The translations under genes were made by a program, and so were the position numbers. A stretch of DNA of 64,000 bases from Heterodontus francisci (taxonomy: Eukaryota), in contig NC_090394.1 of NCBI RefSeq assembly GCF_036365525.1, positions 65,273,743 to 65,337,742 on the forward strand. Direction: 5' to 3'. The notes beneath the pieces were generated by a model, which was given only the letters and a program-made list of their open reading frames with translations, made no database searches and was not told the origin of the DNA. Shown here piece after piece: positions 9,136 to 61,656 of this stretch; positions within the stretch are counted from its first letter, which is position 1, and each line of letters starts with the position of its first letter.

Positions 9136-9210
9136 CTTGATTAACACCCTAACTGCCCCTCTCTCGCTTCCTGCCGTGACAACGACAAAGCTTCCACCCT
9201 ATCGCTACTC
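9136..9210 (-). other. SPSB3: Candidate non-coding exon 1 of SPSB3 (5' end approximate)
   Basis: Donor TCAAG|gtgggt at 9135 on the minus strand, at the left edge of the CpG island. TSS not determinable from sequence. Confidence 0.35.
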
Positions 9211-9690: not shown

Positions 9691-9899
9691 TTAGTCTGAG
9701 TTTTAAGGGGTTAGTGTCAGTCATGTACCAATGCCGAGGCCAGCTCGCTGTTCTCAGTTAACAATGTTTTTTTCCCAATATGGCATTTTAATTGTTATCT
9801 AGTTTTATATGTGAAGTTATTAGCGCTCTAAGTAATGAAAGACATAAATCAGTGTAAATAAGCAGCCCGAGGAAAGTGCCGAACGTAACGGCATGAGTC

Positions 9900-37570: not shown

Positions 37571-37854
37571 GTCCTCTGGTGACGTGGTGAGGAGGGGCTT
37601 AACTCAGGATTAGGATTCATAGATCAAGAAGCAGGATTTGTTCCACTCTTGTGCTTGAGTGGATGAAGGAGCAATATGAAATGATGAAAATAAAGGAATT
37701 ACTGGTGAGATTAATGAATAATGAATCGAGCATGAATATGTAAGCATTTTTAACTGCTGCCTGGAGATGTAAATTTCCATCAAAGCTGGACTGTGAGCTA
37801 AAATGCCAGAACGATCTGTTACCAGTGTTCTGAAGAGCATCGGTTTTGGATGCC

Positions 37855-38510
37855 ATCACTAAGACTGCCTATTTCCACCTCCACAACATTGCCCGATTCC
37901 GCCCCTCAGCTCATCTGCTGATACCCTCCTTCGTGCCTTTGTTTCCATCTACACTTGACTATTCCAATGGACTCCTGGCTGGCTTTCCACATTCTAGGTC
38001 TCTGTAAACTTGAGGACATCCAAACCTCTGCTGCCTGTGTCTTAACTTGCACCAAGTCCTGTTCCCTATCACCCCCGTGCTCGCTGACCTACATTGGCTC
38101 CCGGTCAAGCAACATCTTGATTTTAAAATTCTCATCCTTGTTTTCAAATCCCTCCATGGCCTTGCCCATCCCTATCTCTGTAATCTCATCCAGCCCCACA
38201 ACCCTCCATGATATCTACGCTCCTCTAATTCTAGCCTCTTGTGCATCCTTGATTTAAATCGTTCCACTATTGGTGGCCGTGCCTTTAGCTGCCTAGGCAC
38301 CAAGCTTTGGAATACCCTTCCTACACCTCTCCACCTCGCTTTTCTTCTTTACGACACTCCTTAAAACCTGTCTGTTTGACCAAGCTTTTGATCACCTAAC
38401 TTAATATCATCTTGGCGGCTTGGTGCCATGCTTCATTTTATAATGCTCCTGTAAAGTGCCTTGGGACATTTTATTATGTTAAAGCTTCTATATAGATATA
38501 AGTTGTTGGA
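37855..38510 (+). mobile_element. L2 LINE, 3' fragment
   Basis: Degenerate AYFHLHNIAR..LDYSN..LADLHWLPV..ILILVFKS motifs and an L2-type tail (tgtaaagtgccttgggac...ataagttgttg). Confidence 0.8.
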
Positions 38511-39929
38511 TGGCCTACATTCTCTCATGACCTTTCTATCTAAGGACAGAGTATTCATATTAGGAGCCATACAAATTGGTGATTCTCTTCCCCTGAGCTG
38601 GATATTTTGGAGGAAGTGTTTTCTTATCTTCAAAGTAAGGAATGTAGATCCGGGTAAGAAGTCACCAATTAAGTATATCAGAGTCTGGTGCAACATAATG
38701 CATCCCTGCTATTCTTCCACAGCAATGTGCCTTTACCCTAACCTCACTATATTGCTCTCGTGAACTTCCATTTTCTACATCAGTAATTCTTAAGAATATA
38801 AGAAATAAAAGCAGTAGTAGGCTACATGGACCTTCAAGGCTGCTCTGCCATTCAATAATGTGGTTGATCCATATTATTTTCATTTTTTCATTCCGATTGC
38901 AGTCATCTTTCAAGTATGAGACTTATAAGTTGTGGTGAATTGTGGACAATATTGAGCTGTGGGACATCTTTTGCACGGGAACTTTACTGACTGCACAGGA
39001 ATGTTTCCCCTGTTTAGTCTGGACCAAATTCAAACAACAGAAAAGGACAGTGTGCTAATTAATAAAAAAGAAACCTGGTTCCTATGCTCCTACTTTCTGT
39101 TTTCAGCTGCAACATCCTGAGGAACCACATTAAAAACTGGGAAAATCAAGAGCATTACTGTACTACTCTCCCAGACCTCCTTGTTCAGAATGGGATTTGG
39201 GAGGCCTGGGAGTAGAGCTCTCAGCAGACAACGTGAAAAAGCAAGGAAAAAAATAGTGGAAGAGGTATTTCGACTTAGAAAAATATTATAGAAGTAATTT
39301 TTGAGCTTGCATTTGTTTCAAAACTAACCTCCATGTACACTGTCAATTAAAAGGCTAATGGCAAACTAATTGGATCATGAACTTACCTTGTCAGAAAAGC
39401 AGAGATCTATTACCTCTACAATACTTATTAGCAACATGTAATAACTAAGTTATATTCAAAAAACATTTTATATACCTTGGATAACAGATGACACTTTGTT
39501 TCTTTAGGACATGAAGTAAGAGGTAATTTAGTTATCTGAATTAGTAATGGGGGTCAAAATTCCTGTTTTTGTTAATTTTAGTGTAGACTTGAATAAAAAT
39601 ATTGTGTGAGCCAATTTTCCAAAATAAATTGGTTCATAATTGCCCCTAGCTTGGGATATCACTTTTTCCTCATATACTTTTTAGTATAATTAGCAATTTT
39701 GTTCCTCATATTCCTATGAAAGCTACCCTCTGCACCAACACCACCAGCTCCCATTGTGTTAGGTGAATCAGAAACAAGCAAAATAATAAGGAATTTGCAC
39801 CGGTCTTGGCCGAAGCAATTTTTGATTTCTGTGACAACTTTGGAGCGAAGTGTAGAGCCTTTACTAAGTTTACACAGCCTAACGCTTCGGTCAGTGCAGT
39901 TGCTGTGATTTTAACATGATCAACCAAGC

Positions 39930-39959
39930 TTTATTTGCAGAAACTATTGTAAGTTTATT
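39930..39959 (-). terminator. Two candidate IGFALS polyadenylation signals
   Basis: TTTATT at 39954-39959 and 39930-39935 (AATAAA on the minus strand), ~220-250 nt past the stop codon. Confidence 0.55.
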
Positions 39960-40179
39960 TGTATATGTTCGCTAAGCCAGAAAGAATCAGACTATTATTA
40001 GCAAATTAGATTGGGAATATTGTGTTCCAAACCAGATAGGCACGTCAAGGTTTGATTTCCATTATTATAGTCATAACTGCATATTCAAATTACATCAGGG
40101 TGTCAAAGCTAAATACCATGGCATTGCTACTTGAACAATATGCATGCAATGAGAAAACATGCAACTCATGTACTTGATG

Positions 40180-41993
40180 TTAGCAATGACCAAAATAATC
40201 CTCACTGATGTCTCTCAGATCTGTACTAGCAATGGTTTGTGGGCTTGCACACGTGATGTTGTTGTATGTGTACATGGTTGTATGAGTTTCATCTCCTTCT
40301 ACCACCGATTCGAAATAACGAGGAACTACATGGGGATTCTTCAGACAGTAATCCCTGAGTGACTTCAGCAAGCAGTCACAGTGCCACTTGTTATCTTCCA
40401 ACAATAGTTGCTCCAGTTGTGATGACTGCTCCAAAAACTGTTCTGGGAAATGTCTTAAATAGTTGCTCTTAAGGTTCAGATACCTTAACTTGATCAATGG
40501 TGTAAGAGTATAATTATAGAAAAACTCAATAAAGTTCTCTGATAAATCAAGCCAAGAGAGACGGTGAAGAGGCTGAAAGGTAGTATCAGAAATGTATGCA
40601 AGTTTATTGCACTTTAGTAGAAGATACTCCAGATTTGGTACACTTGTGAAGGCCTGAGGAGATAGCTGTACTAGTTTGTTGTAGCTGAAATCCAGCTCCA
40701 AAAGCTCTTGCAAGTCACTGAGGCTCTGATTGTCAATAACTGAAATGTAATTGTCTTGCAGGAAGAGTCTTCGAAGGCAGATCAATCCGGAAAATGTGTT
40801 TGGTTGAATTCTGGTGACTGCATTGTTTTGTAAATGCAGGCTATGAAGATTAGGAAGACCATTAAATGTATGGTCTGATAAATTCTTTAAAGAGTTACTG
40901 GATAGATTCAGTACGGCTACCTCATGAAGGCCAACAAATGCCCCTGGTTTGATCTCCTGAATCTGGTTATTGTTCAGAGTGAGAACTTCCAATTGTACTA
41001 AGCCATCAAATATGTTTTCAGAAAGGCTTTTGATTTTGTTGTACCCAAATTGGAGTTCTTCCAGAAACTGAAGTTCTCTGAATGTCCTGTGCCTTAACCC
41101 TGTGATGGAGTTGTTGAGCAACCGAAGCACATGAAGATTTAGGAGTCCAGAGAATGTTTCTTCATATAATATAGTAATGCGATTGTGGGACAAGTCTAAC
41201 CATCTGAGAGATTTCATTCCCATAAAAGCCCTAGGTACAATGGTGCTGATCTGGTTACAGCTCATATAAAGCTTTTGGAGCTTTTGCAGCTTCACAAAGA
41301 TGTTCGCCTTTATCACTCGCAACAGATTTCCTGACAAATCAAGTTCCTTCAGCTCTGTCAAACTGATAAACAGTTGGGACTGCAGATATGTTAACCTATT
41401 TCCTGCCAAAATAAGCTCCTTTAAGTTTGTTAAGTCATGAAAGCCTGTAGCGGGCAAAACTGCCAGATTATTCCATCCCAGATTGAGGTACCAGAGGTGG
41501 GAGAGGCCAGAAAACAACACATCTTCAATTTTACTAAAGTTGTTATTGTTCAGACTAAGTGAGCCAAGAGACGGAGTGTGGAGAAATGCATTTAGTACCA
41601 GGTATTTCAATTTGTTCCTTTCCAAATGCAGGTGGACCAATTGTTTCAAACCGTAGAAGGCATGTTGATCAACACTAATTATGTGGCTATTCTCTAGGTT
41701 CACAAAGTCCAGATTAGACATGTTCCTGAAAGCGTGGGATGGAAGAACTGTGAAGTTATTAGAGTCAAACCAAACTGCTTTAGCATTAACTGGTACATCT
41801 TTCGGAATGCTGGTAAGATTACAAGAGCTGCAGTAGACATTCAGTTCTTCACTGTAGTCATCAAAAATGCAGGTGCATACTTGGGGGCATTCCAAATTTT
41901 CATCATCTGACTCTTCCCCTGATGGTAACTGTGATTCTGTTCCCAACACTGGGATGAACCTCAGACAAACAATAACCAAAACAAGGCAAAATT
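40180..41993 (-). CDS. IGFALS: Insulin-like growth factor-binding protein complex acid labile subunit, main coding exon
   Basis: Uninterrupted LRR ORF with LRRNT (CPQVCTCIFDDYSEELNVYCSS), LHLERN, LNLGWNNLAVLP, IKANIFVKL, LRWLDLSHNR and C-terminal YNNITCASP..DLRDISEDYFGHC*, matching recalled human ALS. Acceptor tttttttag| at 41994 (phase 1). Syntenic with NUBP2. Confidence 0.97.
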
Positions 41994-42273
41994 CTAAAAA
42001 AAATAAACACAACATGCAATCAGAGAATATAAAACATTCAGGGTTTGGATAATTTTTATAAGATAATCATCACAGACAAAAAAGAGAAAAAGATCATTGA
42101 AATAAATTAACGATTTCCATGGCATTGTTCATAGTAAGTCAGAGGATGTTTATTAGGGTCTAAAATTATTACCACTATTACCATCTAACACACAATGTAT
42201 TATTCTGCTGTGAAGGTACACCTGAGTGCAATTTAGCCTATCCCTTTAAGAACATAAGCTCTGATGATGCTTG

Positions 42274-42304
42274 CTGAGAGCAATTAGAGTCTAATTGCTC
42301 TCAG
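42274..42304. repeat. Perfect 15-bp inverted repeat with a 1-nt spacer
   Basis: ctgagagcaattaga-g-tctaattgctctcag. Confidence 0.9.
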
Positions 42305-42836
42305 ATAGGCACTGAAGTAAGTTAGAAATTTGGAGATTCTTTTCTAATAGTATTTTTAAAAAGATCGCATTGAATCTGTTATGTCTGAAATGTGAAGTAT
42401 ATTGAATGTAATAGAGAGATGTTATGTAGTTGTGATATCCAATCTCTGCATTATTATCTCTGCATTATGTTGTCTATAGTAAAGGAAAATAACTTATTGG
42501 GAAATGTAACAATAAGGTTAACTCCCATAATACCACTTATATTTAGGGCTTTGTTATACTGAGGATTTCTCTGTTCCCATTAACAGATAATTGGGAATTC
42601 AGTGTTTTCTAGAAGCAAGTCTTCCTAGATTTCGTCATTACATGAAATCTAATATTAACAATAAGTGACTTCCTATTTTGTACCACACAGAGCCATTGTG
42701 ATCAATTTTAACAGCTTGGGTTATGCTTAAAATTAATTAAAAAGAAAAGACAAGATTATATAGAAACACGCAACCACTGAGGTCCTACTGAGAGAGTTTG
42801 GGTGGATGTTAAAGATCCTATGACTTGAGCAACAGT

Positions 42837-43190
42837 GGGGCGGCACAGTGGCGCAGTGGTTAGCACCGCAGCCTCACAGCTCCAGCGACCTGGGTTCAAT
42901 TCTGGGTACTGCCTGTGTGGAGTTTGCAAGTTCTCCCTGTGTCTGCGTGGGTTTCTTCCGGGTGCTCCGGTTTCCTCCTACATGCCAAAAGACTTGCAGG
43001 TTGATAGGTTAATTGGCCATTATAAATTGCCCCTAGTATAGGTAGGTGGTAGGGAAATATAGGGACAGGTGGGGATGTGGTAGGAATATGGAATTAGTGT
43101 AGGATTAGTATAAATGGGTGGTTGATGGTCGGTACAGACTCGGTGGGCCGAAGGGCCTGTTTCAGTGCTGTATCTCTAAAACTAAAACTA
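42837..43190 (+). mobile_element. HE1-type V-SINE (elasmobranch tRNA-derived SINE), full length
   Basis: A/B boxes (tggcgcagtgg, gggttcaattc), V-domain (tgtggagtttgca..ctccggtttcctcc), CR1/HER1-type tail gggccgaagggcctgtttc and (ctaaaa)n end. Confidence 0.9.
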
Positions 43191-43913
43191 ACCAATACCA
43201 CCAGAAGGAGACCAGATTAACATCTCATTGCTGTTTGTGAGGCAGTGATGGTGCAGAATGACCGCTGTGTTTACGTATACATGAAGTGGCAGTAGGGTCG
43301 TGCAACATGTGCCATTGTACACAGTGGTCTCAAGCGGATCCAATGATACGTTTAACAATCCTAACTTTATTAATGTAGGGGCCCCAAATTGAACTTTTTT
43401 TATGGGGCCGCTGCAAAGCAAAAGTGCGTGAAACACTTTGAAACATTTCAAGAATGTTTACAGCTGTGTATAAATGCATTTGTAAAAACATTTCTTTTTC
43501 TATAGCAGATGCTACAAAGAAGGCTTGTTTTAACACTTGTCTGAAATGAATTCTTCCACCATGGGAAGCAAATGGGTGGAACTCTTACAAAATCATTCAT
43601 TCAAATTGGGTCCAAGTTTCAAACAAAAAAAAATTCTGTATCTTTGAAGAGATTCTTAACCACTATTAGTACAATGTTGTGTTTCTGGAATTTTTTTTCT
43701 CATTTCAAATGGAATCTTCACAAGCCAGCGTCACTGAGGGATCTTTATCTTAGGCAAATATAACAAAATTGTGGGAAGGATAAAAAGAAAATCATACACA
43801 ACTCATGCATAATGTAAAAATCCATCATATGCTCTGGTGTAAAAAACAAGTAATAGTTATTAATAAATCCTTAATAAATCCCATCCTTGCCCCCATGAAG
43901 AAAAATATCTTAC

Positions 43914-43929
43914 CCACAGATTTGTGCAT
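43914..43929 (-). CDS. IGFALS: IGFALS first coding exon
   Basis: aaaATG CAC AAA TCT GTG G|gtaaga: 16 nt and phase 1, as recalled for mammalian ALS exon 1. Joins in frame to give MHKSVEFCLVLVIVCLRFIPVLG, a signal-peptide-like N-terminus; 609 aa in total. Confidence 0.75.
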
Positions 43930-46364
43930 TTTGTTACGAAGCCTTTTTTTTTTACAGAAAGTAATTTGCCAGTTGTCTTCTGTCTAGCTCAAATTGATGC
44001 CGGTAACAAACTGTACAGAATTATTGCCTTCTTTTACAAAACTTCAGGATCATGGGATAACCTCTTTCTACCAGTTAACCAGCACAACATTCCTAACATC
44101 TCATTCTTTCTTTTCTTATTACGGAAATTTTTTGACTCCCCCACTGACCAGTGGACTGTGTTAATGACCAAATGGCAGTAAGCCAAAATGGGGTCAGCAG
44201 AAAAATAAACACCTGACACATGGTAAGGAAAGAATCAATAGTGTTTACTTAGTGCATCCACATGAGGCAATATTTAGCTACTTTGCAGCCACAAAGCATG
44301 CTACCAATGCAATGTCCCTCTGGACACCAGGTACATTCATTAATACATCTGATACGATCACCCTATCTGGCCAGGGTGAAATAGTTATTTAAAGCATTAC
44401 ACAATCTTGTCAGTTTTGTCTCCATTTAGCACCAAAGCGAATGATACTGTTACAATGTGTAGTAACAGTCTTTATGATATTAACTGATGGGATCTTAGCG
44501 GGTATTTACTATACACATAATATTGTGATTATAGCAACAATTTGCATTTCTGTAGCAGTTTTCACATCAGAGTTCTTGTACCAGAAGGTGAGGAGAATAC
44601 CCAGTGGGAGATGTAGCTTAGTGTAATGGTGGAAAGGACTGAAATTATGCCTCACTCAACTCAACCCATCGTAGCCCATCCCAGGTCAACCTGTTTGGAA
44701 TTATACATATTGGAAATATATTATAATGCGCTCACCTTTATTGCCATTTCAGCATTTTAATTTACTGTCATTATATTCAACCCACAGGAGCAAGGAGGAA
44801 TTGGGCTTTAATTGACCTCTAGATCTTAGCTAGACCATCCGGCCTTAAAGGGAAAGGCCACATTACTCACAGCTGCAGCTTAGCAGCAGAACAATACCTT
44901 CTGTGCTATATTCCTATCCTTAGAAAACATTGCACCCACTGACATTCTACAAGCAATGTCCCCAGGAGTTCCATTAGTCTTTATCAAGCTATTTTTGTGT
45001 AAATTCGAACTTAACCTATTTTTTGGGTATGCAAAGTGACTTTCCTTATCACATATATTCATGTTGAAATGATAACTAGTGGATAAATTTTTTTTTAGCA
45101 AATTAGTCATCCCTGGATTTGAATAATCACCTTAATCAATGAACAGAATCATTCCAATTAGAAGAGTAACTTCTTAACATCTACAATAATTGAAGGAATA
45201 CTTCAGAAAAGGGTGTCATCATTAAGTTGTTGTAATCCTTTTTCGAATATCACCCAGCTCGTCAGGTAAGAAACGACGGTAAATCATACATGTGTTTTGT
45301 ATTTTACTTTATAGTCTACAGAGTGACTCAGATGTACTAAGATGGTTGCAGCCATCATGCATTTACCTCATGAAAAGTGTCAAGGGATAGCAATATGTTA
45401 CTGTAATAAAATTTCATTCCACGTCAGCATGTGCTTCAATGCTGAAGTAATGGGAGGAGGACTTTATTGTTAAGCACTCCATGTGATCATTCATCATTTT
45501 CCAGCTCCACAACACTCCAGGATTGGGAGGAGAATCGGAATAAAGGCTTTGCCTTAAAATCAATTAAAACTTTAGGTCATTTCAATCACTTTGTTAAAAT
45601 TTGCAGTAAGCATCAAAATAAGTAGATCCTGAAAATGAACCAATTTAAGCACTTGATTCCTATACTACTCCAATTCCTTCAAGCAACACCTATTCGTTGC
45701 AGCCAATTTACTTATTCAGACCATATCAATCTGAGCTTGCATACGTGATTGAAGTTAAGAGTCTACATTAGCAGGAGCTCCAGCCCTGATAATGTTCTGG
45801 TGATAACATTTAGTTACTGTTAGGAAAGCACCTCTCTAACGGTCAAGGCTACTCATGTCAAAAAATGCTGCAAAGATCATAGTGATAACACAGCACATGA
45901 GGGTAGCATTGAAAGAATTGCTTTGTTAAATATAGAAGTTTTTCCCCCAATTTTACCAGTCTTTCTTCCCTCCTCTCTTGACAGTAGTGATTCATGCTTG
46001 AGGAAACCTTATGTAAGTGTCTATTCTTTAAGTATGAATCAATATGATAAGGGTTGACAGCCTGTACAAATGGGGTACAAATGAGCTTAAGCCTGTTACT
46101 ACCCAGTATCCACACGCAAGCATGTTCAGCAGTGACCGTCTGATAGTGATCAGCATCGGGATCCCAAGCTGAACTTTCCCTTCTCATGACCAAGACTGCT
46201 AAAGGCCAAATGTGCTCCGACTGCTGCTCCAGCCAAGATCAGCTAACTCAGTCAAATGCTCGAGGAACATCACCTCATCTTTTGATTTGGCGTTTTACAG
46301 GCTTCTGGTCTCACCATTGGGTTTAACAATTTCTGATCAGGATCACTGCTTGCATTTTCTTGGA

Positions 46365-46595
46365 TAGCAGGTGATGGTAATATTCTGCTGTGGTCATTTA
46401 CAATATTGTCCCATGACCACCCCCTCTTTTGCCTTGCTCCACCATCACTTTGGTCATTTAATCAATCTTGCCTTCCACTCTATCACAGACCTTCCCTTTT
46501 GGTCCCCCTGTTCCCATCCCCCTTTTAACCTTGGCTCTGTATTGCTCATAAACTGTTAAATTTATAACTTTTTCCAGTTTTGATGAAGGCAGACA
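46365..46595 (+). mobile_element. Penelope-like element terminal remnant
   Basis: Pyrimidine-rich terminus (ctatcacagaccttccctttt...ttccagttttgatgaagg) typical of shark Penelope-like repeats. Followed by a partial Deu-SINE at 46610-46830. Confidence 0.45.
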
Positions 46596-47061
46596 GAAAG
46601 AAGAGCAATGACTTGCATTTATATAGTGCCTTACACAACCTCAGGATGTCCCAAGCATTTTACTGCCAATTAAGTCATTTTGAAGTGTAGTGTAACGTAA
46701 GAAACTTGGAAGCCAATTTGTGAACAGCAAGATCCCACAAACAGCAATGTGATCTATTTGAATGACGTTGGTTGATGGATATATATTGGTCAGGACACTG
46801 GGGAGAACGCCCCAACTCTTCTTGTTGGCCCAATTCCCCCAGGCACCTCCTCAAAAGGACATCTGCTGTTAAATTGGCAGCTGGCAACTTCTAAGTGCAC
46901 AAGGTAACCAACTAAAACAGGCACTAGGCTCCTTGAATATGCTAATTAGGGGAGTGTTGCTTGTTTTAGGACCCATGTCAAATTCAGCAAAAGCTGAACG
47001 CAGAATGTGCTGCGCATGCTCTGTTCAGTTCTCCAGGTCTACAACAGTCTAACCAGTCCTT

Positions 47062-47815
47062 AGAGTCATAGAGTGATACAGCACAGAAACAGGCCCTTCT
47101 GCCCATCATGTCCACGCCGGCCATCAAGCCTATCTATTCTAATCCCATTTTCCAGCACTTGGCCCGTAGCCTTGTATGCTATGGCGTTTCAAGTGCTCAT
47201 CTAAATACTTCCTAGATGTTGTGAGGGTTGCTGCCTCTACCACCCCTTCAGGCAGTGTGTTCCAGACTCCAACCACCCTCTGGGTGAAAATTCTTTTCCT
47301 CAAATCCCCTCTGAACCTCCTGCCCCTTACCTCAAATCTATGCCCCCTGGTTATTGACACCTCCACTAAGGGAAAAAGTTTCTTCCTATCTACCCTATCT
47401 ATGCCCCTCATAATTTCATATACCTCAGTCAGGTCCCCCTTCAGCCTTCTCTGCTCCAGGGAAAAAAACCCTAGCCTTTTCAGTCTCTCTTCATAGCTGA
47501 AATGCTCCAGCCCAGGCAACATCCTGGTGAATCTCCTCTGCACCCTCTCCAGTGCAATCACATCACTCCAATAGCATGGCGACCAGAACTGTACACAGTA
47601 CTCCAGCTGTGGCCTAACTAACATTTTATACAACTCCAGCATAACCTCCCTGCTCCTATATTCCATGCCTCGGTCAATAAAGGCAAGTATCCCTTATGCC
47701 TTCCTAACCACCTTATTTACCTGTGCTTCTGCCATCAGTGATCTATGGACAAGTACACCAAGGTCCCTCTGACCTTCCGTACTTCCTATGGTCCTACCAT
47801 CCATTGTATATTCAT
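47062..47815 (-). mobile_element. CR1 LINE, 3' fragment (young)
   Basis: Open 175-aa ORF2 C-terminus at 47139-47666 plus the 3' UTR. Confidence 0.93.
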
Positions 47816-48185
47816 CGTTAATTATCTTTATGCACCATTGTGAGGAAATAATATTTACTGGTTATCTGTTTCCTTCCTTATTTTTTTAAATTTAAATATT
47901 TACTGTGAGACACAGTACAGAAGCACCACAAAAAAGGGGCAGTGCTTGTGCAAGCAACTAACCCCTTACTAAGCTCACCATCTTCTATAAGCCCATGGAG
48001 TGGGAGATAGAGTAAAAATGCATGCCCAGGGTATCAGAGATTTGCTCAAAGGATGAGCACATAGACATGGCTGGGCCCATACAAGAGCTACTGGACTTTA
48101 CAGAATCTTAGAATTATGGCTAATAGGTAAGGTGTTGCTGTAAGCAATTTTAAAAAAATTTTGTTCTTTTCCCAATAAAATTCAG

Positions 48186-48365
48186 AAAGATCTAAATTCC
48201 TCTGAAAAAACCTGGGAGTGGCTTCTGGCTGAGGAAGAACCCATTATCCTCAGCGGACTTCTTTGGTGCTGGCTTGAGCAGTTCAAAGAGCCTGTCCTAT
48301 CAAAAATAGACATACTGCACTTAATAAAAACTCACAGAACCAATACCCTGGGACTCCTGAAGAAG
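48186..48365 (+). pseudogene. PTPDC1-like exon (C-terminal region of protein tyrosine phosphatase domain-containing 1 paralogue); functional status unknown
   Basis: ttcag|KDLNSSEKTWEWLLAEEEPIILSGLLWCWLEQFKEPVLSKIDILHLIKTHRTNTLGLLKK|gtaaag: 180 nt, phase 0-0, no stop. Aligns with recalled human PTPDC1 KELNSRDGAWERICGERDPFILCSLMWSWVEQLKEPVITKEDV...LFLLEK. Confidence 0.75.
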
Positions 48366-48469
48366 GTAAAGCTCTGGGGATCCTGAGTTTCTCCTGGGCA
48401 AGGAACCTAACACAGTTTCTCATGGACTTTAGAACTGCTCAATTGAACTGAGTAGAGAAACCACTTACA

Positions 48470-48760
48470 TTAGATTTACCAGGAGGATGTTTCCTCTTGT
48501 GGGGGAGACTAAAACTAGGGGACACAGTTTAAGAATAACAGGTCTCCCTTTTGGGATGAAGATGAGGAGAATTTTTTTTTTCTCAAAGTGTCATTAGTCT
48601 GTGGAATTGTCTTCCCCAGAAAGCAGTGGAAGCTGGGTCATTGAACTTACTCAAGGCTGAGTTAGATAGATTTTTGATAGACAAGGGAGTCAAGGGTTAT
48701 GGGGGGCAGACAGGAAAGTGGAGTTGAGACCACAACCAGATCAGCTATGATCTTATTGAA
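48470..48760 (+). mobile_element. CR1 LINE, 3' fragment
   Basis: MFPLVGETKTRGHSLRI-like sequence and 3' UTR, same family as the copy at 24341. Confidence 0.85.
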
Positions 48761-50007
48761 TTAATTAACTAATTCCTTAAGGAACCTCTCGAGGATTCCA
48801 AAGAGCAGGGAAGTTTTGGATCTTTTTATCTAAAATAATGTGGAGCAGGGAAGAGTAGGAGTGTGGGCCACAGTGTGACCTGAACTCACCCCTTACTATT
48901 CCCACCCTCTGTTGACCAGCAAGCTGCATCATGACGCTCAGACCTAGTGATCACATCTCACTGAAATGAAGCCTGAGGCCCAAGTTGCAGGAAATCTTGT
49001 GCCTTCGTCTTTAGGTATGTGTTCCAGACATGTTGCCCACGTTGAATTGTTACCTGTTGCGAAACCTATTTCTCAGCTGCTTTGCTTTAAAATACAAAAC
49101 TTAGATATTGCTCAAACCACAAATCAGTTCCCTGAGGAAAAAGATAATCAATAGAAGTGTGACTAAAGATCAGTGTAGCTTTCAGCCGTACAACATTTTG
49201 TTTTAGCACTACTTTCTTCCTTGTTAACTTTTGTTCAGGTGGCCATGTAGTGTGAATAGGGGCAGAAAACTAGTGAGCAGCCCTTTCACAATCTGCACAG
49301 TAAGCTGCTGCTCAGCACATCCCCACGCAGAATGTTTGAGATCCAAACTATGATGAAGTGAATGACTGAGTCTGTATTTATTTACTCTGTGGCATGGCAG
49401 GTTTTTAGCAATGCTTTACCTTCAATGCTTAACATGATCAAAGCAAGAGCATTTCTCATTTCATAGTATTATTTGAATTTCAAAACCTGTCCTATTTTCA
49501 GTGCAGGAATGTTACTGCAGTCTCAAAAAGGTTAAACGTCACTCATATATTAACTTTGACCAGAATGGCAGTTTTACTGAGCTGGTAGTGGGGAATATAA
49601 TAATTTGCTGTCAAAATAATGGCAAGGCTAATAGTGCAAACACTGCAGCAAATTTAAGTGAGGGCAGATGCATGATTAAATGTAGAAATCCAAAAGTTGC
49701 TGTCTGAGATGCACATTGAGTTCATTCACTCGAATTTATACTTCCTTATCATTCCTTGTGCAGTCAATTCCACAATCCTTCAATCTGATTGGTTAAGGAG
49801 ATACACAGTTGCTTGCTCTGTTCACTCAGGTCCCAGATGCCTTGTTTCCCTTGCTGCGCCATTGTCAGCTCACAGGTCCAGCAACTTGCAACGGAAAATA
49901 TTGTCGATTAAAGGGGCACGGGCAAGTCTAACTAACAGCCGACGCTCCTAAATTCACTCCTACTGCAAAATATGGCACAATGAATACTTTTAACAGCTTA
50001 AACTTAC

Positions 50008-50135
50008 TGAACCATGAAAGTGCTGACTGTGACAGGCAGCTCGTGAAAGTACCCATGGATTTACCTTTAACAAGACTTTGGATCCAATCAGCAGCAAAGG
50101 TAAATATTTAAAATTTGTTTCTGCATTGCTGTTCT
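50008..50135 (-). promoter_or_regulatory. Candidate liver-type promoter and short non-coding exon for IGFALS
   Basis: Minus strand reads AAACAAAT, TAAATATTTAC (FoxA/HNF1-like), TGATTGG (CCAAT), GATCCAAAGTCTT (HNF4 DR1-like), TTAAA, then the consensus donor CA|GTAAGT at 50007. Confidence 0.35.
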
Positions 50136-50339
50136 TTTGAATTGTTGATTCTAACAGCTTTCAAACATAAAACAGACCGAACTCAGCCCTGAATGATGGG
50201 ATATTTTTCCTTGCAGCAACAATACATATACACGTTCACTGCCACTTCATCTCAAAAATAATATACAAATGTGGAAGTATTGTTAATACACTTGTGCTTT
50301 TTGATTGGTTCCCAACCATCCTTTCAAATAGCTTTGGGG

Positions 50340-50840
50340 AAACCTTGGTTATTCTTCTTATCTCCGTACCTAAGGAAAGATATGCTTGCATTAGATGTAA
50401 CATTTTCCAGATAGATTCCTGGAATGAGAAAGCTGTCCTATGAGAAGAGATTGAGTAGAATGGGCCTATATGCTCTGAAGTTTAAAGGAATGCGAGGTGG
50501 TGTCATTGAAACATAGCGTCTTAGTGGATTGATGGGGTAGCTGCTGAGTGGCTGTTTTACCTGGCAGAAGTGTCTAGAGGGCATATTTAGAACTGAGATG
50601 TGGAGACATTGCTTCACTCAGAGGGCTGTGAATCTTTGGAATTCTCTACCCCAGAGGGCTGTGGATGCTCAGTCATTGAGTATGTTTAAAGCAGAGATTG
50701 ACAGATTTTTGGGCGCTACAGGAATCAAGGGATAAGGGGACAGGGCAGGAAAGTGGAGTGATGGTAGATAATCAGCCATGACCTTACTGAATGACGGAGC
50801 AGGCTCATGGGGCAGTATGGCCTACTCCTGCTCCTATTTT
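50340..50840 (+). mobile_element. CR1 LINE, degenerate 3' fragment
   Basis: LSYEKRLSRMGLY..., FTQRAVNLWNSLPQRAV-like sequence and the 3' UTR. Confidence 0.8.
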
Positions 50841-51528
50841 TCATAATATCACATGGTGGCAAGATGTCTGACAGCAGTAGCAATGAAAATGAAAAGTGTT
50901 TCAGGAATCAGTTATTTTCATGGGAGAAATGCTGAAAAATAATGAAAGGTTCTGGCTCTGAAAAATGGGTCACCAAAAACCAGCCTGACTGCTACAGTTT
51001 GGGATGTCATTTGAAGGCAGCAGAAATATGTAGTAGGTTGGTGAGGGGGGGGGGGGGGGGGAAGGGGGGGGTGGGGGGGTGGGGAGGGGCGTAGGGGGTA
51101 TGAAATTGAGACGTAGTGAAATAATCTGAAGTGGAAAAAAGTTCCAACAGTGGAACAAGATTTGATGGGTCAAAATTCAGTCAAAGGCCAAAGGTGAGAA
51201 GTATACCCAAAATGGCTGGTGGTTTTGGCCTCTGGAATATACTGTTTGCTCAAACTCTCCCTTATTCTATTTGATACAAAACATTTAAGTAAACCAAAGG
51301 TCTGCATATTGAAACAGAGCAAGTGATTATTCAAAGGAAAGGGTGTTGCTTTCTAGAGAGGAGGAGCTGAAAGGTTTGAATAGATTAGCCCAAAGCAGGC
51401 ATAGCTCATCCCTGCCATCTTTATCAAAACTACTGGTTGTAATTATTTTGCATCACAAAATAATGATAAAAGGGTTGAATTGCAGATTTTTTTTTTGTTT
51501 TAGTACATGTATGAAAGAGTGTGTGTGT

Positions 51529-52433
51529 TGTTACAACCAGGTGAGAAAGGGGTCTAGGGCTTCCCTCTCCGCCTTTGCCTGGTTTAACCGTAACAGGGTT
51601 TAATTTTTAAAACACCATGTTTTTAGCTCCCCCTCAGTGAATTCTTGTTCACTGCTCTCCAATTGTAAGGCAAAGAAATCAACCAGACAGGTTTTCTTAG
51701 ATTTAAACAAGAAAGATGGAAGTTTATTAACCTTAAAACTCTAATTTGGTTAAAACGACTATGAATACATGACGCGACCACGCTAGCATGCATACGCAAT
51801 AAACACACACGCAGATAGAGACAGAAAAGTAGAAAGAATAAAGGGGAAATGTTTGAAGCAATAGCTGGGGTTTATTTACTGTCCTTTGAGTTCGATGTAA
51901 AGTCTTTGATTGCAGGTAAATCTTCCCGTTTTGTAAGGGACCAGTGGACGCTTTCAAACTTATTTTGATGTGGGAGTCCTTTCGCTCTTGCGGTTTAAGT
52001 GACTTCAGTAGATCCAGAGATTCATGTGAGAGAGAGAGAGCTAGCCAGGAGAGAGGCTTGATTCTGCCAACTCCAGTTGCAATCTGACCCAAAACTGTTG
52101 TGAGTGTTCAAACAAAACCTGGACCAGCAGGTTAGTCATGTGACTAGCTGTTTTAACAAACTCCTGCATTTGTGGATTCTCCAGCTTAGCAGATACCATG
52201 GAATGCTGGCTTTCTTACACATGCAACATCTGGTGATCAAAATCCATTTAGGTTAATTGGATCAGGGAGCCGTTCTATTGTCTCCAGGCACTGTCTCTTA
52301 GTATGCAAATGTTTTCCAGTGACTGCTGATCTCTTTAAACAAGTAATTTCTTCATTCCAGCAACAGTTTAAAATTAATGTTCATATGACAAAATTAATAT
52401 GCCTCATTCTTGGCAGGTTGGGTCTTCATGACA
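51529..52433 (-). mobile_element. Solo LTR (Gypsy/ERV type), 905 bp
   Basis: TGTTAC...ATGACA termini, 4-bp TSD GTGT (51525-51528, 52434-52437), minus-strand AATAAA at 51723-51728. Confidence 0.75.
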
Positions 52434-53084
52434 GTGTGTGTGACCATTAAGATAAATCAACAATGGAAAATAGTCATTTGGTCTTTATTGTTTTGCCCCT
52501 AAATGTAGTGATTTTTTTTTTTGTTTCCTAAACTACAAAGTTATTAAGCAAAAGAGACACCACAAAAATCAACAACAATAAAATTAGATAAATGGGAGAC
52601 AATTGTAATGGGAAAATGACACAATTGCAAAATAGTGCGTAAAATGTTATTAATTAATTTCCCTGTGGATAAATCGAATGTACAAGTCATTAAACATTGT
52701 GTTAATCTTATCTATAACCTGATGTCTTTGCACAGAAATTCAGAAGCCAAATACAATACAGAAGCACAAATGAACACACCAGTAATAAAACAATCCTGCG
52801 AATCATTTGAACGCACCAGAAAAAGCCAGCAAGGCTGACCAAGGGTTGATTAAACAGTTACAAAGTCAATATAGAGCATGTTAGTCAGTGTACATTCAGG
52901 GCACTGGCAGTAATTCCAGCTGAAGACGATTGCCAAAACAAACTTCAGATGGCAAACAAAGGAACAATGAGTTTCTGAAAATCTAGGAGTGTAGTTGTTT
53001 CCTTCATTAAATATAATGGGTACAAAAAAAAATCATGTGACAGAGTAGCCCAGGACTCCTGTCGAACAATAAAATCTTGCTCTG

Positions 53085-53768
53085 GGGCTGTATTTTCAAA
53101 GGGCCGTGAGGTCGGGACTTGGTGTGGTCGCTATTTGAAAATTGCTGTCCCGGAGGTCGTCTCGGAACCTTGACGCTCCTGGGACAGTCTGCAATTTTCA
53201 ACGTGAGGGCGGTGGTGGGAGGGAATGGGGAATGCACTCACCTCCAATTAAGGGCCCATTAAGCTCATGGAAGAGCTAATTATAGGAATGGGGTGTGGTC
53301 TGCACTGATATTTCCCATGCTGATTCCGATGAGCCCGACCAGTCTGGTGCGCAATAATGCGCAGCCGTCAGGCTCACAGTGGGCAGAGGGCAAACTTTAT
53401 TGTTGGAAGATGGAATGTTTTGGGCCCAGGGGGACCTTGCTGCGGGCCAATCACAGGACATTTTATTTTGGAAGTGCTGCCTCACCTCTTTATTCCACTA
53501 GCCCTTCATGGAGCTGCCTGCTCTCTTTGGCAAGGCAGCAGCAGGCTCCATCATGGCTGCTGTCTGCCTTTGCCGCTCGCACTCCGCAGGCAGCTCCCAC
53601 CTCCTCCAGATGCTCAGCACCACTAATTGGATGCCGAGCTCGCCTCCTGCCCAATTAGGGCATTAACATTTAAGATTGCGTCCTATTAGGGATGCAGCTC
53701 AGATGCTGGGTGGGACCTGGAAATCATCTGGGCATTGGGTTCCGGACCCCGTTTTGAAAATTCAGCCC
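53085..53768. mobile_element. PIF/Harbinger-type MITE
   Basis: Terminal inverted repeats (TIRs) GGGCTGTATTTTCAAA / TTTGAAAATTCAGCCC, 3-bp TSD CTG. Confidence 0.75.
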
Positions 53769-54886
53769 CTGGGGGTCAGTTATTGTTTCTCAATTTTATG
53801 TACAATATGACTATGAGACTTGTATTTGTTTTTGTTTCTTGACTTCTGAAAATATAGCATTGCTAGATCATGTCAGTAGCTCAGTTGACAGCACTAATAT
53901 CTCCAAGTCAGAAAGTTCTGTCTTCAAATCCCACTCCAGGACCTGAGCACTTTTGGAGATGCTGTCTTTCGGATGTGACATTAAATTGAGGCCCTGTTTG
54001 CCCTCTCAGTTGCACACAGCACAGACCCCTCAGCATTATTACAAAGAAAAGCACATGGTTCTCTCAATGCCCTTTGTTTTTAATGTGGTCCAAAGTCTAA
54101 AACACAAAACCTCTCTCAAGTGGTGTTGTCAGTGTTTGCACCCTGGAGGGACATCTCCACTTATGAATGCCTCAGGATGACTTTGAATGTCCCGCTAACA
54201 AGGAAGATCTGGATAATCTACTCAGTTAGCCAAAGCATTGTTCTGGCTGGGCTTCTTGATCGACTTCTGTTTCCGGTTGGGGCCTTGTAATGTGCAAAGG
54301 TTTTTCAGATGCAAATTGCAGTGGCCATTCGTGGCTGCCAGTTTTTAAAAAGTTAACTGTAGGATTTTTCCATTACAAATCTAATGTAAGTTTCTAACCG
54401 ATGAATTAATATTTCTCATTTGGCATATTGTGTTTTCCTGACAGTGAACACAACTCCAATTCCATATTTACCAACAGTCCCACACCTTGCTTTGCCTCTC
54501 TTGCTGACCATCACAGTGTCCTTTTCGCCACAATACTGAAATAAAGACCACCACAAAAAAAAGTCCATATCAACTTTATCAAGCAAATCATCCAATATTC
54601 CATAAAAAAGTCAAATAATCATCCTTGTGTGTTCCCTTAGTGCCTGTCTTCTGTGTGCCTTTGCCTGGCCAAGCCCAGTGGCTGCAGCATGGCTGGTGGA
54701 AGGCTGCTGACTATCACTGGGGGGGAGACTGCAGGAAGCCTTGTGGGATGACCTCAAGCAACTCTGGGCCAAGAAGACCCAGGTTTGGACTGCACCAGCT
54801 TGATATGGGTGACATTAAACTGGAATGGCTGGCTGACAGTTAATAGCAAGGACACTGGTGGAGTGGCAGTGGTGGGGGGACAAATA

Positions 54887-55684
54887 GGGCTGAATTTTAT
54901 GCTGCCCCAGTGGGTTGGATGGTGGTGTGGGGGAGGATGGGGGTGGCGTAAAATTGAGTGGGAGGCTCCAGAAGGCCTACCCGTCCCACTCTCACCTCCA
55001 GTCAACTTTACGGCGGTCTGGCAGGGGAGGGGGGAAACGGTCCACCCGCCCAAGACCAATCAAGGCCCTTAAGTAGCCACTTAAGGGCCTTTGCCTGCCT
55101 CCATGTGTATTTTACATAAGAACATAACATAAGAAATAGGAGCAAAAGTAGGCCATTCAGCCCCTCAATCCTGCTCCACCATTCAATAAGATCATGGCTG
55201 ATCTGTCCCAGGCCTCAACTCCTCATTCGGGCCTGCTCCGCATAACCCTCGACTCCCCAAACTACCCAACTACCTGTGGAAAGCGGGTGTGCTGGGGACA
55301 TGAAGGGCTGCCCGGCAATAGCTGCCGGCCTTTCTGTGTGCTGGGGCCGGGGGCCATGGCAGTCGGGCACAGAGTGCCCAATTGAGGGCCACCACTGCCT
55401 CCCAACTCACTCCCAGGACCCAAGATGCACCCCCTCCCCACAAACGACCACTCTAGCCTCACCAGGGCATGACTGATCATCACTGGTAACGCATGCTCAA
55501 TGTACCTGAGGTCCTGGCTCCATGTTGTTGGCTGGGCTGCAGTCCCAGCAGTGGCCACCGCTCCCTGTGGCGCTGCTGGGACTAAGAGCTGCTGGCCCGG
55601 ATCCCCAGGCTAGGCGGAAGGGGGTTCGCCACTGACTTTTACATCAATGGCGAATTCCCATCCGCCTAAGGTAAAATCCAGCCC
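54887..55684. mobile_element. PIF/Harbinger-type MITE carrying a CR1 3'-tail insertion (~55115-55260)
   Basis: TIRs GGGCTGAATTTTA / TAAAATCCAGCCC, 3-bp TSD ATA. A related truncated copy at ~57734-58170 shares gtaaaattgagtgggagg and cccttaagt. Confidence 0.75.
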
Positions 55685-57014
55685 ATACTGTCATCTTGAG
55701 AGATGACAGCAGGTTTGTGCTCCACAGAGCCACTGCCACTCCCCTGGGGTGACAACACAGCAATCCTAATCATATGTTGGAGGACTAATTGCTGGACTGT
55801 TGTGTCACCCTCAAATATCCACAGCCATTGCGGCAGCTCTGCATGCAGGTCCTCAAGGTGACACAGCTGGTATTGACTTGCACAGCTATCTGTTTCCATT
55901 GCCTTCTCAGAGTTTGTCGAGGATCTCCTGGTTCCCTGCACAGATGGAGTACCTCTCACCTCCTGTCCACTTCCTGCATCTAGACCTCCAGTTCTGCATG
56001 CCAGAGATCCTTGGAGCCTGCTCCCAGCCATGTGGTGTCATTGCTGTCACTTTCCCACGTCAAACTGACTTCTAGAATGACTTCCAGCACCTGCTCCAAC
56101 CAAAATGTCCCTCCCCCTTAAGGGGTGCAGTCCAGCTTGAGCTTGTGCCAGCCCCTTCTGATTTTGTACCCCCCTGCTCAGGCATGCAGTCACTCAACGG
56201 CATGCTTTGCACTGACTGCACGCTGCAGTCATTTAAATGAGCAGGCAGCACAAATTCTGTAAGCTATCTGCTTCAGAAGCAACAGGCGTGGGTTAATCAC
56301 GCATCGTGATCCCTGAGCCAATTTTCGTGCCTTAACAAATTTTGCCTCCCTGATGTTTTAAAACTTTGAAATTGAGAAGAGAATTTTTTCAAATATTGTT
56401 ATTTTTAATTGGCGAAAATTGTAATTTTTTGAAGACAAAGTTCTTGTAAAGTTTAATTATTCATTCATTTTAGATAACTTGTGTTCTGGGTATTGAAGGT
56501 TGCCCAGAGTAAGCATACTACTTCACTCCAGGGACCATGGCTTAAATCCATCCAAGACCAAGAGAGTGAAAGTCTCTTCACTTCCCTATCTTATGAATGC
56601 CATGTGAAATTTGTCCCGCTGGTTTCAACCCTTGGGTAATGTCTGAACTCTGGCTTCCTTGGGAAATGAGCCCTAGTGATCATTGCCCTGATGTCCTCCT
56701 CTGGATTTTGTGGAAAAGTAGAGCATGCACTTACTGTTCATGAATAGATAAATGCTTTTGAGGATTACTTGCAGTCTGTCATTTGGCTTTTGTATTTTGG
56801 TCCAGGGCAATTGGACATTTCTGCCTTAGCCCAATATGTTGGCTCTTTCCTTCATAACCTTCTGATGCAAAGTGATCTGTAGATTTTGGTCCTGTTAACA
56901 CAGGATGATTTTGTACTCCTTTCTTTGTCTGTCACCATTTGGGAATTGTTTATCCTGGTCGTCCTTTTCTTATGGCTTATGGCTTCAAATTTATGCATTC
57001 TAATAAAGAAAAGG

Positions 57015-57425
57015 AGCTTGCATATATATTCACAACCTCAAGGATGCCTCAAATCACAGTCATAGCAGGAAGTACAGATACAGTCACCATTGTAATGTAG
57101 AGAAATGCAGCAGCCAATTTGTGCATAGGAAGTTCCCACAAGCTGCAATGAAATAAATGCCGAGATCATCTTTTGGTTGAGGGGTTAAGTGTTGGCTTGG
57201 ACACCAGGAGGATTCCCCTGCTCTTCATCAAATTATACCATGGGCTATATCAACCCGAGAGGGCAGCAGGGCTTCAGTTTAACATCTTATCTGAAAGACT
57301 GCACCTACTGCAGTGCAGCACTCCCTCAGTATGCACTGAATTGCCAGACTAGATTGTATGCTGAAGTCTATGGAGTGGGTCTTGAACCCACAACCTTCTG
57401 ACTCAAGAGTGCTGCCACTGAGCCA
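57015..57425 (-). mobile_element. Deu-domain SINE (SacSINE1-like)
   Basis: Same architecture as the copy at 16955-17405. Confidence 0.65.
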
Positions 57426-58509
57426 AGGTTGATAAAATTGTTCTGAGAATCTTTAAATAAAGTAGGTAGGTTACAAAACTGTAGCCATTCCATTGGAATA
57501 GTTTGTGATGGATCTATCAGAGGACCAATATGGTGGCTGGCATGTTTCAGGATATTTTTGGGACATTTTTCCACAAGTGAATTTGCCAAACACTTGCATA
57601 TAAATGTTTGCCTTTTTAAAGTAAAATGTACCCTTACACTGAAATGAAAGATTGTTAAACTATTAACGAGCTATACATTGATGTTGTTTCCCCAAGGATG
57701 GAAAACAACAAACAACTCATTAGCCTGCCTCAGTGGCCGGATTTTTATGTCCCCCTCCCCACCGCCCCTCCCGCACTCCCCATGGGAGTGGGCTGGAGTC
57801 CGGGGAGGGCGGGGGTGTAAAATTGAGTGGGAGGCAGGGGGGTGGGTGGGGACACGGTTTCCATCACCTACCTGCCCCCACTGCAATTTTACCAGCGACA
57901 GGGGAGCTGGCAAATGGCCTGCCCACCCCAGGCCAATTAATGCCCTTAAGTGGCCAATTAATTGCCACTTAAAGGCCTCCTCCCGCTGCTGCTGGAATAT
58001 TACCAGAGGTGATTGGCCACTTTGCAACCTGGGGGAGGCTGCCCAGTTGAATCTGGCAGTCTCCTTGCAGGCTGGGAGATCCCCTCCTGACTGGGCATCC
58101 TGCGCCCCACGGAGGGCCCCCTCCCCACATGGCACAAGTGGCTTCCACTGGAACACCTCTTCCCGCACTGCCAAACATCAACCTATACAACAGTGTAACC
58201 CAAGGAAGAGAAAATGCAATCCCCTTGACGTAGATATTGGATATTATGAAGGCAATTTTCAGTTTGAGCACAAATTCGGGGTAATTTTGACTTTGTGTGA
58301 TACTGTGAAATAGGTAATAATTGTCAGCCCATTTTACATCTTGCCTGAATTTTATTTCCATTGACTTCAATGGAAATTGGGAAAGAGGTAAAATGGGCTG
58401 GTGATTTGCCAATGTTACATTATCAGCCAAAGTGATGAAGGGAAGGGCGTATTCTGGAATTATAGGGCTGATCTTGAACTGCATAAGGCTTTTTGATTTC
58501 ACACTCATA

Positions 58510-60476: not shown

Positions 60477-60581
60477 CTGGTGTTTTAGGTGCAATAGTAC
60501 TTTGACTGGCCCACTCCAGATTAGAGCTCAAAGGAGATGTATAATAATTAGGCATTGAAGAAATGGATGGGTTGAAATAAG
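60477..60581 (-). CDS. Penultimate exon of an unidentified gene (Ser/Pro/Tyr-rich)
   Basis: ttttcttttctag| 105 nt |gtaagt. Only the phase-1 frame is open: xYFNPSISSMPNYYTSPLSSNLEWASQSTIAPKTP-G. Confidence 0.55.
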
Positions 60582-61001
60582 CTAGAAAAGAAAATCCAGT
60601 TGAAATAAACAATTAAGTACACAGGTAAACTAAACTATGTTTCCCTTTCTGCCAAAATAAAGCATCTCAAAACCCTGTTTTTAACATTTTGTAAAATCGG
60701 GAGAGTGTCACACCCGGTGTTATATTTCAGGATTTTTTTTTCACAGCAAGGATTTGAAATAAGGTTATTTTTAATGTTTTTAAGCATTAAGTATTATCAC
60801 GTTTTAGGAAAAAGCACCTAGATAAAAAAATGATTATTATACTAAATGGAATTTGTTTTCCTATGGACAAAACAAGAAATTACTCATTAGCTAATCTAGA
60901 TAATTGAACAACATCTCACATCCATTGTGTTGGAAAGGTCTTTTCACCCTTGTCTACTTGTGAATAGAGAAATAGACAGAGGCTTTTTGAAACTGAAAGG
61001 T

Positions 61002-61656
61002 TGTAAGGTCAGCTAGACTTTTAAAGCAAAAGCTGCAAAAGCTGTCAGCAGGCTCTGAAAGTCAGAAAATGCTGACAGAACAGTTAAAAGACCTCTTCTT
61101 TAAGTCAAGAAAGATAACCCACTGACATGAGGAAATGTGGCATGTTGCTTTTTTTGTATCAGTATATGAAGGTAGATTCTATTGATAGTTAAGTGAATTT
61201 GAGAATTGTTCTGTTAGGGGAGACTGGCCTATTGGGATCATGGGATACTTGCCATAAAACTTAGGCCCCTGAAACTTGAGAAAAGCTTGTCTGTGAGACC
61301 CAGAGAACCACATGAATAATCTAATCAAGAGGTAGACGAGGTCAGGGGGAAGAAACAAGGAATCACATGAATAACCGAATCAAGAAGTTGACGAGGTGAA
61401 TAATATGATTAAGGAAGGATGAGATCATGGAAGACAGTAAGATGGGAAGATGATGTAATTAAAGAAACAGCTTGTCAGGTAAACCTCTTGTAACTGTATA
61501 AATTGACTGCTCAAACATTGTACTAGTAGAATCCCTATGATCATTCGTGAGAGTAGGACTTCTCCTTGCATGCTCGTAATAAAGATCACTCATTTGGACA
61601 AGTCATTCGACTCTCAAGGTGTTTTTGGGTATCGGGGCAAGCCCTCACCCCTTATA
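61002..61656 (+). mobile_element. 5' LTR of an endogenous retrovirus-like element
   Basis: TGTAAGG...CCTTATA inverted termini (one mismatch), tandem U3 repeats cacatgaataa..aatcaaga..gacgaggt (~61310 and ~61364), TATAAA ~61498, AATAAA ~61578, followed by PBS-like TTTGGCG. Confidence 0.75.

Follow-up and report, generated by a model that had tools for sequence, protein, structure and literature searches.

The window, by which we mean the whole 64-kb stretch of DNA analysed here, is vertebrate DNA, probably from a shark; it contains zero N and carries coding sequence on both strands (Table 1). The exon at its left end presumably belongs to SPSB3, and the gene at about 9.56–34.2 kb on the plus strand is presumably NUBP2. 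The large leucine-rich-repeat exon on the minus strand matches Pfam LRR_8 with E 1.3e-146, plus LRRNT; we assume it to be IGFALS, as in the initial annotation. Three contigs of one sequencing run (327, 338 and 741 nt) correspond to this IGFALS exon with zero differences, so the run comes from this species or one very close to it. The first exon of IGFALS was also sought. The stretch 44737–44748 (−), which combines an ATG with a good donor, is a candidate for the first coding exon, but it is in phase 0 and the exon-2 acceptor needs phase 1; a scan for phase-1 candidates gave weak ones only.

The exon studied here lies on the plus strand about 6.2 kb away from the IGFALS coding exon, in an island of unique sequence between two repeats, and an ordinary first exon of its gene could lie no further upstream than the 3′ end of the NUBP2-like gene. 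A six-frame Pfam scan of 34.2–48.9 kb gave LRR and LINE domains only, and an Rfam search gave 0 matches. Elsewhere in the window, a CpG island at 8500–10000 (observed/expected 0.8–1.1) coincides with the NUBP2 start and probably serves as a promoter shared by two head-to-head genes; in 33–62 kb every 1-kb block is at 0.5 or below. An isolated exon-like stretch of 105 nt with an open frame and a strong donor (score 8.9) stands at 60477–60581 (−), and the region 61000–64000, with short integrase-like pieces in the ORF list, looks like an LTR retroelement.

Table 1. Features of the locus, with positions counted from the first letter of the window.
Feature	Position	Strand	Basis and remarks
SPSB3-like exon	38–152	−	self-BLAST
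NUBP2-like gene, ends approximate	9560–34190	+	motif mapping, sequence; introns up to about 8 kb
Large coding exon with leucine-rich repeats, taken as IGFALS exon 2	40180–41993	−	ORF 40180–42066; acceptor 41994–41995
LINE-type 3′ fragment, left edge of unique island	47060–47810	−	self-BLAST; RT-like ORF 47139–47693
Splice acceptor, pyrimidine-rich tract up to CAG	48166–48185	+	predicted from sequence; heuristic score 8.5
PTPDC1-family exon	48186–48365	+	phase 0-0, 60 codons; homology and borders
Splice donor, GT following AAG	48366–48371	+	predicted from sequence; heuristic score 4.3
Repeat fragment, right edge of unique island	48486–48761	.	self-BLAST; repeat finder

The initial annotation had described an intact 180-nt exon of phase 0-0, with ag/gt sites and without a stop codon, and the letters bear this out: 48184–48185 is AG, 48186–48365 reads through 60 stop-free codons in frame 0, and 48366–48367 is GT. 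Its absence from the ORF track, also remarked upon there, was verified, 60 aa being too short for the 100-aa list. By itself this anatomy is weak evidence, because stop-free stretches of AG, 180 nt and GT are common by chance (59 of the 472 in the window), and the case rests on homology.

A phmmer search with the 60-aa peptide against 1.84 billion protein representatives gave 60 matches at E≤1e-3. The top row, a repetitive protein of 1603 aa (P0002) that covers residues 22–43 only, was set aside; the remaining 59 have E-values from 1.9e-9 to 9.4e-4 and identities of 38–59%. A PTPDC1 or PTPDC1-like name is carried by 19 of the 30 match clusters looked up (the other 11 are unnamed, hypothetical or generic), and Pfam phosphatase models are matched by 23 of 31 hits scanned. 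A profile of the exon aligns over its positions 1–61 exactly to 48186–48365, with 68.9 bits against a control maximum of 2.7. Furthermore, a fish-like contig (L001) has identical AG/GT phase 0-0 borders around the homologous exon, and short genomic ORF fragments of homologues lose their similarity at the same points as the exon borders. At the level of sequence similarity, 48186–48365 is confirmed as a C-terminal (tail) exon of the PTPDC1 family, matched end to end, and the whole-length PTPDC1 match proposed in the initial annotation thus stands.

The initial annotation had also considered that a gene model might already exist here. No annotated protein containing the exon was found, either by phmmer of the 1.84 billion representatives or by word-index protein searches, which are weak (one missed the homologue P0011, which has 6 words in common with the query), and no PTPDC1-family protein more than 59% identical to the peptide occurs among the representatives searched by phmmer. 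The peptide gave blank results against Pfam and against PDB sequences. Scanning metagenomes with the peptide alone found nothing, and with the alignment six loci of 29–57% identity and zero orthologues (three were examined further). Judged by its sequence relatives, this is a real, previously unannotated PTPDC1-family exon.

The exon diverged as protein-coding sequence under selection. Against a profile built from invertebrates only it scores 67.1 bits, and 46 living vertebrate exons score 59–88, nine of them at or below it. Neutral decay was simulated from shark zgc:77752-type (zgc) or PTPDC1-clade exons down to the observed identity (22,500 runs, of which the 5,047 within 5 points of that identity were scored). 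The means were 15–24 bits and the maximum 59.1, and the conclusion follows because 0 of 5,047 simulations matched the score of the exon. Conserved columns were counted in 98 rows thinned to 76, after four mis-spliced or truncated rows had been removed. Of columns conserved at 80% the exon keeps 21 of 23, and 47 of the 76 rows compared show equal or greater deviation; at 90% it keeps 12 of 14, and 8 of the 76 do so. No stop, frameshift or splice-site loss was found in 48186–48365. The initial annotation's term decaying therefore does not fit an exon that is lesion-free and as conserved as living copies, and any disablement of the gene would be the missing exons, not a lesion of this one.

These missing exons were sought by several routes. 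With 76 homologues as tblastn queries against the window, 48186–48365 was the sole match; 16 zgc-type proteins (among the matches listed) and the sturgeon proteins described below likewise found only this exon. A full-length profile of 85 sequences gave 61 bits at the exon and at most 3.7 everywhere else in the window, and ten exon-wise profiles found 48186–48365 only, on either strand. In a frameshift-tolerant alignment the exon reached 87.9 bits, the rest of the window at most 22.8 and controls up to 21.4. In all these searches the dual-specificity phosphatase exons and their catalytic HC..R motif were absent from both strands of the whole 64-kb window, as the initial annotation had stated for an intact catalytic exon; the exon is therefore not classed as a phosphatase gene.

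Simulation indicates how much erosion such searches tolerate. Six phosphatase segments were found in 92–100% of replicates at decay up to 0.1, in 40–100% at 0.2 and in 12–76% at 0.3, figures that are somewhat optimistic, since both source proteins have isoforms among the training rows (25 replicates per setting). The next exon of the tail scores 40–78 in 10 of 12 test proteins and 60 in the sturgeon protein, and in 48.4–64 kb, the 15.6 kb downstream, it was not found, the best value being 20.9 bits against a background of about 20–23. Because detection is high at light decay, the phosphatase exons and the next exon appear to be absent rather than eroded. The upstream and terminal segments behave otherwise, being at background even for the sturgeon protein (upstream 14 bits). 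A short first exon could therefore hide in the window; no candidate above background was found upstream of 48186.

Several candidate remnants were rejected. The stretches 38617–38685 and 38965–38982 (+), on the far side of IGFALS, failed a contiguous profile in which 379 of 2,104 nulls did as well; among 2,134 nulls, those as good numbered 41 for the single segment, 8 for the post-hoc pair, 200 for any segment and 555 for a colinear chain. What can be observed at 38617–38982 is a weak likeness to the long post-catalytic PTPDC1 exon, with a short repeat in between. An upstream-exon end near 44177 was one of 498 candidates tried, and 34 of 7,593 control donors scored as well; when a very short intron and exon were tried just before 48186, 87.5% of the control blocks did. 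Two further stretches are at background level, one resembling the next exon and ending at 54504 (20.9 bits), the other resembling the catalytic exon, ending at 49454 (20.2 bits) and placed in the wrong order.

RNA data carry no weight for or against expression. Zero RNA matches were listed for the candidate runs of the window (three runs at share 0.04, two at 0.00). When four runs were mapped on 37600–57599 at 85% likeness, repeats swamped the output, and among the matches listed (32 pieces and 15 joints, with 78,465 and 1,296 more) none involves the exon.

Two vertebrate paralogues of the family were available for comparison, PTPDC1 itself and a second one, of fishes, sharks and amphibians, for which we use the label zgc:77752 from UniRef names (P0111, P0183). 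Annotated zgc:77752-type proteins from at least 11 cartilaginous fishes are among the matches listed (120 of 936). The window exon has 45–56% identity to ten of these copies, the eleventh model lacking most of the exon, whereas nine of them are 62–92% identical among themselves in it; by identity, the window exon is not an ordinary zgc:77752 orthologue. It is no closer to PTPDC1-clade exons (45–57%), in a comparison set that holds no confirmed shark PTPDC1. In one fish, the GenBank model P0061 joins a zgc:77752-type gene to an ODF3-like SHIPPO-repeat gene, which suggests that the two are neighbours there.

Another group of relatives was found in sturgeons. Three "PTPDC1-like" models of 197 aa (P0026, P0211, P0212; Huso huso KAK6483393.1 and KAK6476580.1, Acipenser oxyrinchus KAK1135394.1) are 92–96% alike, intact, without phosphatase and encoded at three loci. 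They are about equally far from both known clades (37–43% identity) and may represent an unnamed third PTPDC1-family lineage in their own right. The window exon has 45–47% identity to the sturgeon exon, no higher than to the other clades. In a 64-row tree of 62 columns the exon and the sturgeon proteins both fall outside the PTPDC1+zgc group on long branches, and in a 33-row tree of the same columns they are sisters, both on long branches, with support 60/0. The search on 62 columns is unstable, constrained trees having outscored the free tree in the PTPDC1-placement run, and every placement examined survives the AU test (p=0.30 within the elasmobranch zgc group, p=0.33 with zgc, p=0.64 with PTPDC1). 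A third PTPDC1-family paralogue would be the simplest reading of these comparisons, unproven as it is.

The tail of the sturgeon relative was modelled with AlphaFold (P0026; 71-row alignment, mean pLDDT 78.8), and a helical domain is predicted at residues 40–197. In VIA-align the top 21 rows are all RhoGAP/BH domains (rmsd 3.4–4.8 over 131–160 residues, 8–16% sequence identity) at Z 7.5–10.4, the next row being at 5.4; these values lie below the caution level of about 13 for helical bundles, and the 21 rows form one family. Foldseek gave RhoGAP-type domains throughout among the matches listed, with zero at E≤0.001, and an Atlas comparison gave RhoGAP-type leads at values below 0.9 only. By sequence, weak Pfam RhoGAP matches occur in 3 of 31 PTPDC1-family members scanned, and a profile search of the PDB returned zero RhoGAP. 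Automatic annotation already hints at such a tail, through PF00620 on some salmonid entries and the UniRef name of P0016. A RhoGAP/BH-like helical fold is thus predicted for the sturgeon relative and not for the exon. The window exon corresponds to residues ~70–130, the middle third of this domain, and since it is the middle of a helical bundle its peptide could probably not fold by itself. The arginine-finger region presumably lies outside the exon, judging from the aligned ranges and from the residue numbering. As to the function of the family, knockdown of mouse Ptpdc1, described as a CDC14 homologue at centrosomes, is reported to give longer cilia (PMC3069013).

Synteny was taken from supplementary file 6 of a published comparison (PMC10972751), whose matched rows give one member per species and are not a full family census. 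The initial annotation had argued from the human interval between IGFALS and HAGH, which is a poor guide here: IGFALS and HAGH are 7.2 Mb apart in chicken and 4.2 Mb apart in gar, and in chicken, frog and bamboo shark it is CCDC78 that lies next to IGFALS (PMC10972751). In bamboo shark the IGFALS model and CCDC78 have consecutive ids (4477, 4478) with a gap of ~90 kb between them; the ids are weak evidence, as an out-of-series model is placed there too (PMC10972751). In the same rows, the bamboo shark model at IGFALS (chr21:46,308,327) sits in both the IGFALS and the WBP2/WBP2NL (alpha1) groups, which may mean that a third WBP2 paralogue or a fused model is present there; scanning our window with short motifs gave no convincing match to a WBP2-like exon.

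The proposal that the exon comes from a PTPDC1 ohnologue is likewise unproven. In the matched rows, the PTPDC1 group (6 rows) has zero members on the IGFALS chromosome, its jawed-vertebrate members being on CLG E segments, whereas IGFALS, SPSB3 and HAGH belong to CLG H alpha1; PTPDC1 is on chicken 12, gar LG5 and bamboo shark chr18, and IGFALS on 14, LG13 and chr21 (PMC10972751). An ohnologue origin is nevertheless conceivable, because CCDC78 and GTF3C1, which are CLG E genes, share the IGFALS chromosome (PMC10972751). Neither ptpdc1 nor igfals occurs in the supplements of PMC7269912, and those of PMC10115646 give one row for each and no synteny.

The reading that we favour, tentatively and at slightly less than an even chance, is that the exon is a relic of a third PTPDC1-family copy, once a working gene and probably since dead. 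After duplication, this copy would have diverged under purifying selection, and the exon's share of the protein would have been the middle third of a helical tail domain, predicted to be RhoGAP-like. Upstream, a deletion likely removed the 5′ part, unless this had already lost its phosphatase, and the 3′ exons would have been deleted or would lie more than 15.6 kb downstream. A single deletion between the 5′ end of IGFALS and the exon would suffice, and the gene need never have crossed IGFALS; the initial annotation's view that the upstream exons necessarily lay across IGFALS or in 44–48 kb is thus too strict, all the more as the 38.6–39.0 kb remnant failed. On this account no protein would be made today. 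The relic is favoured because all detectable partner exons are absent from the 64-kb window, and because no PTPDC1-family protein is above 59% identity, though proteins of the other paralogue are listed for at least 11 cartilaginous fishes. The consecutive ids of the IGFALS model and CCDC78 in bamboo shark point weakly the same way (PMC10972751). Another reason is time: the probability that a dead exon is still intact is 0.60 at d=0.02 and 0.30 at d=0.05, a decay that takes tens of millions of generations. At the shark mutation rate of 7e-10 per generation (PMC10587355), d=0.05 corresponds by our own arithmetic to about 7e7 generations, and so slow a clock would keep a dead exon intact-looking for very long.

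The same reading is weakened by an exon that is lesion-free, with splice sites and frame intact and with nearly all of its strongly conserved columns kept. Its score permits at most about d 0.05–0.1 per site of later neutral decay; death would therefore be recent in substitutions, and related sharks should keep a living copy, which was not found among the 1.84 billion protein representatives. It is weakened further because the sturgeons have their intact phosphatase-less models at three loci.

These points lead to a rival that we regard as possible but, on its own, rather unlikely, namely that the exon belongs to a living short gene without phosphatase, of the sturgeon 197-aa type. A poorly conserved first coding exon would lie in 34.2–48.1 kb, across or head-to-head with IGFALS, and after the known exon two more would follow past an intron of more than 15.6 kb. 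Such a gene would yield nothing but the RhoGAP-like domain, which is likely non-catalytic and would serve as a scaffold in centrosome/cilium signalling or compete there with full-length PTPDC1. An exon conserved at the level of living copies would be expected under this rival, the three sturgeon models carry the same segment without phosphatase, and the two trees place exon and sturgeon proteins as sisters or together outside PTPDC1+zgc. The upstream and last segments of a sturgeon-type protein would go undetected, the 21 leading structural matches of the sturgeon model are RhoGAP-type domains, and the ~90-kb gap before CCDC78 in bamboo shark leaves room (PMC10972751). Against this, the exon is only 45–47% identical to that of sturgeons and the sister support of 60/0 joins long branches, the sturgeon models may be partial predictions, a close shark protein is missing (zero among the 1.84 billion representatives), and no first-exon candidate rose above background. 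The downstream intron would have to reach some two times the length of the longest one in NUBP2 (~8 kb); the whale shark is reported to have long introns filled with repeats (bioRxiv 10.1101/443036).

In a bolder form, which we think unlikely, a third PTPDC1-family gene would be alive in both sharks and sturgeons, having dropped its phosphatase before the split of jawed vertebrates and kept the RhoGAP-like tail only; its product would be a natural scaffold, or a dominant-negative form of a protein that regulates cilium length. The shark gene would be unannotated, starting across or head-to-head with IGFALS and extending, with long introns, towards CCDC78.

An ordinary full-length third paralogue with its phosphatase exons outside the window is improbable in our judgement. 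The exons could be out of reach because the assembly is wrong, because this haplotype carries a deletion, because an inversion breakpoint intervenes, or because SPSB3, NUBP2 and IGFALS all sit in one giant intron. The intact exon would agree with this, and the total absence, rather than erosion, of the other exons fits missing DNA, but the window is without N and same-strand nesting of NUBP2 would probably be needed. Moreover, a full-length paralogue less than 50% identical to others would be expected as its own representative, with a far higher phmmer score.

It is very unlikely, finally, that the exon is the one survivor of a lineage-restricted, fast-evolving duplicate of shark PTPDC1 or zgc:77752, possibly used in an IGFALS-antisense RNA or in NUBP2 read-through (two NUBP2 donors are in phase 0). 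Such an origin would explain the lack of orthologues among the proteins searched, and the AU tests, at p=0.30, 0.33 and 0.64, reject no placement. However, neutral decay never gave the observed score (0/5,047; maximum 59.1 against 67.1), so the duplicate would need to have coded for protein over a long period, and no chimeric annotated protein was found by phmmer or word-index searches.

Taken together, a relic is the likeliest reading of the exon, and there is a fair chance that it is part of a living gene without phosphatase. The odds between the relic and the living short gene are close, and all our weightings are judgement. The two alternatives first put forward for this exon, a pseudogene relic and a truncated phosphatase-less gene, are thus still the two leading readings. 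As a relic it would be of modest significance: it documents, beside IGFALS, a copy of the PTPDC1 family that has no protein record among those searched, and it would illustrate how slowly a dead exon may lose its living appearance in sharks. Should the gene be living and an orthologue of the sturgeon protein, the PTPDC1 tail would be a selected unit of its own and a natural tool for asking what this domain does in cilia, and the IGFALS promoter would have a second transcription unit beside it. No published account of a PTPDC1-family copy at the IGFALS locus or of zgc:77752 was found in a search that mostly did not reach subscription journals.

Compared with known systems, the window copy resembles PTPDC1 (lungfish XP_043934053.1, goat XP_017907995.1, eagle XP_029899356.1) in having the same exon in phase 0-0, with 45–57% identity in the best local matches. 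It differs in that the window holds neither a dual-specificity phosphatase exon nor the following exon, and in having 60 codons here instead of 62; in the matched rows for chicken, gar and bamboo shark PTPDC1 also belongs to a linkage group other than that of IGFALS (PMC10972751). The zgc:77752-type paralogue (for example Callorhinchus XP_042191406.1) shares the exon at 45–56% identity to the ten cartilaginous-fish copies, but these are full-length phosphatases that are 62–92% alike in it. RhoGAP/BH folds (ARHGAP15 3byi, p190A 3fk2, DLC1 3kuq, p85 BH 2xs6) are matched by residues 40–197 of the sturgeon model, although at 8–16% sequence identity and as a fold predicted for that relative rather than for the exon. 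The sturgeon 197-aa models have upstream, downstream and terminal segments and are 45–47% identical to the window exon, yet like the window copy they present a tail domain without a phosphatase on a long branch.
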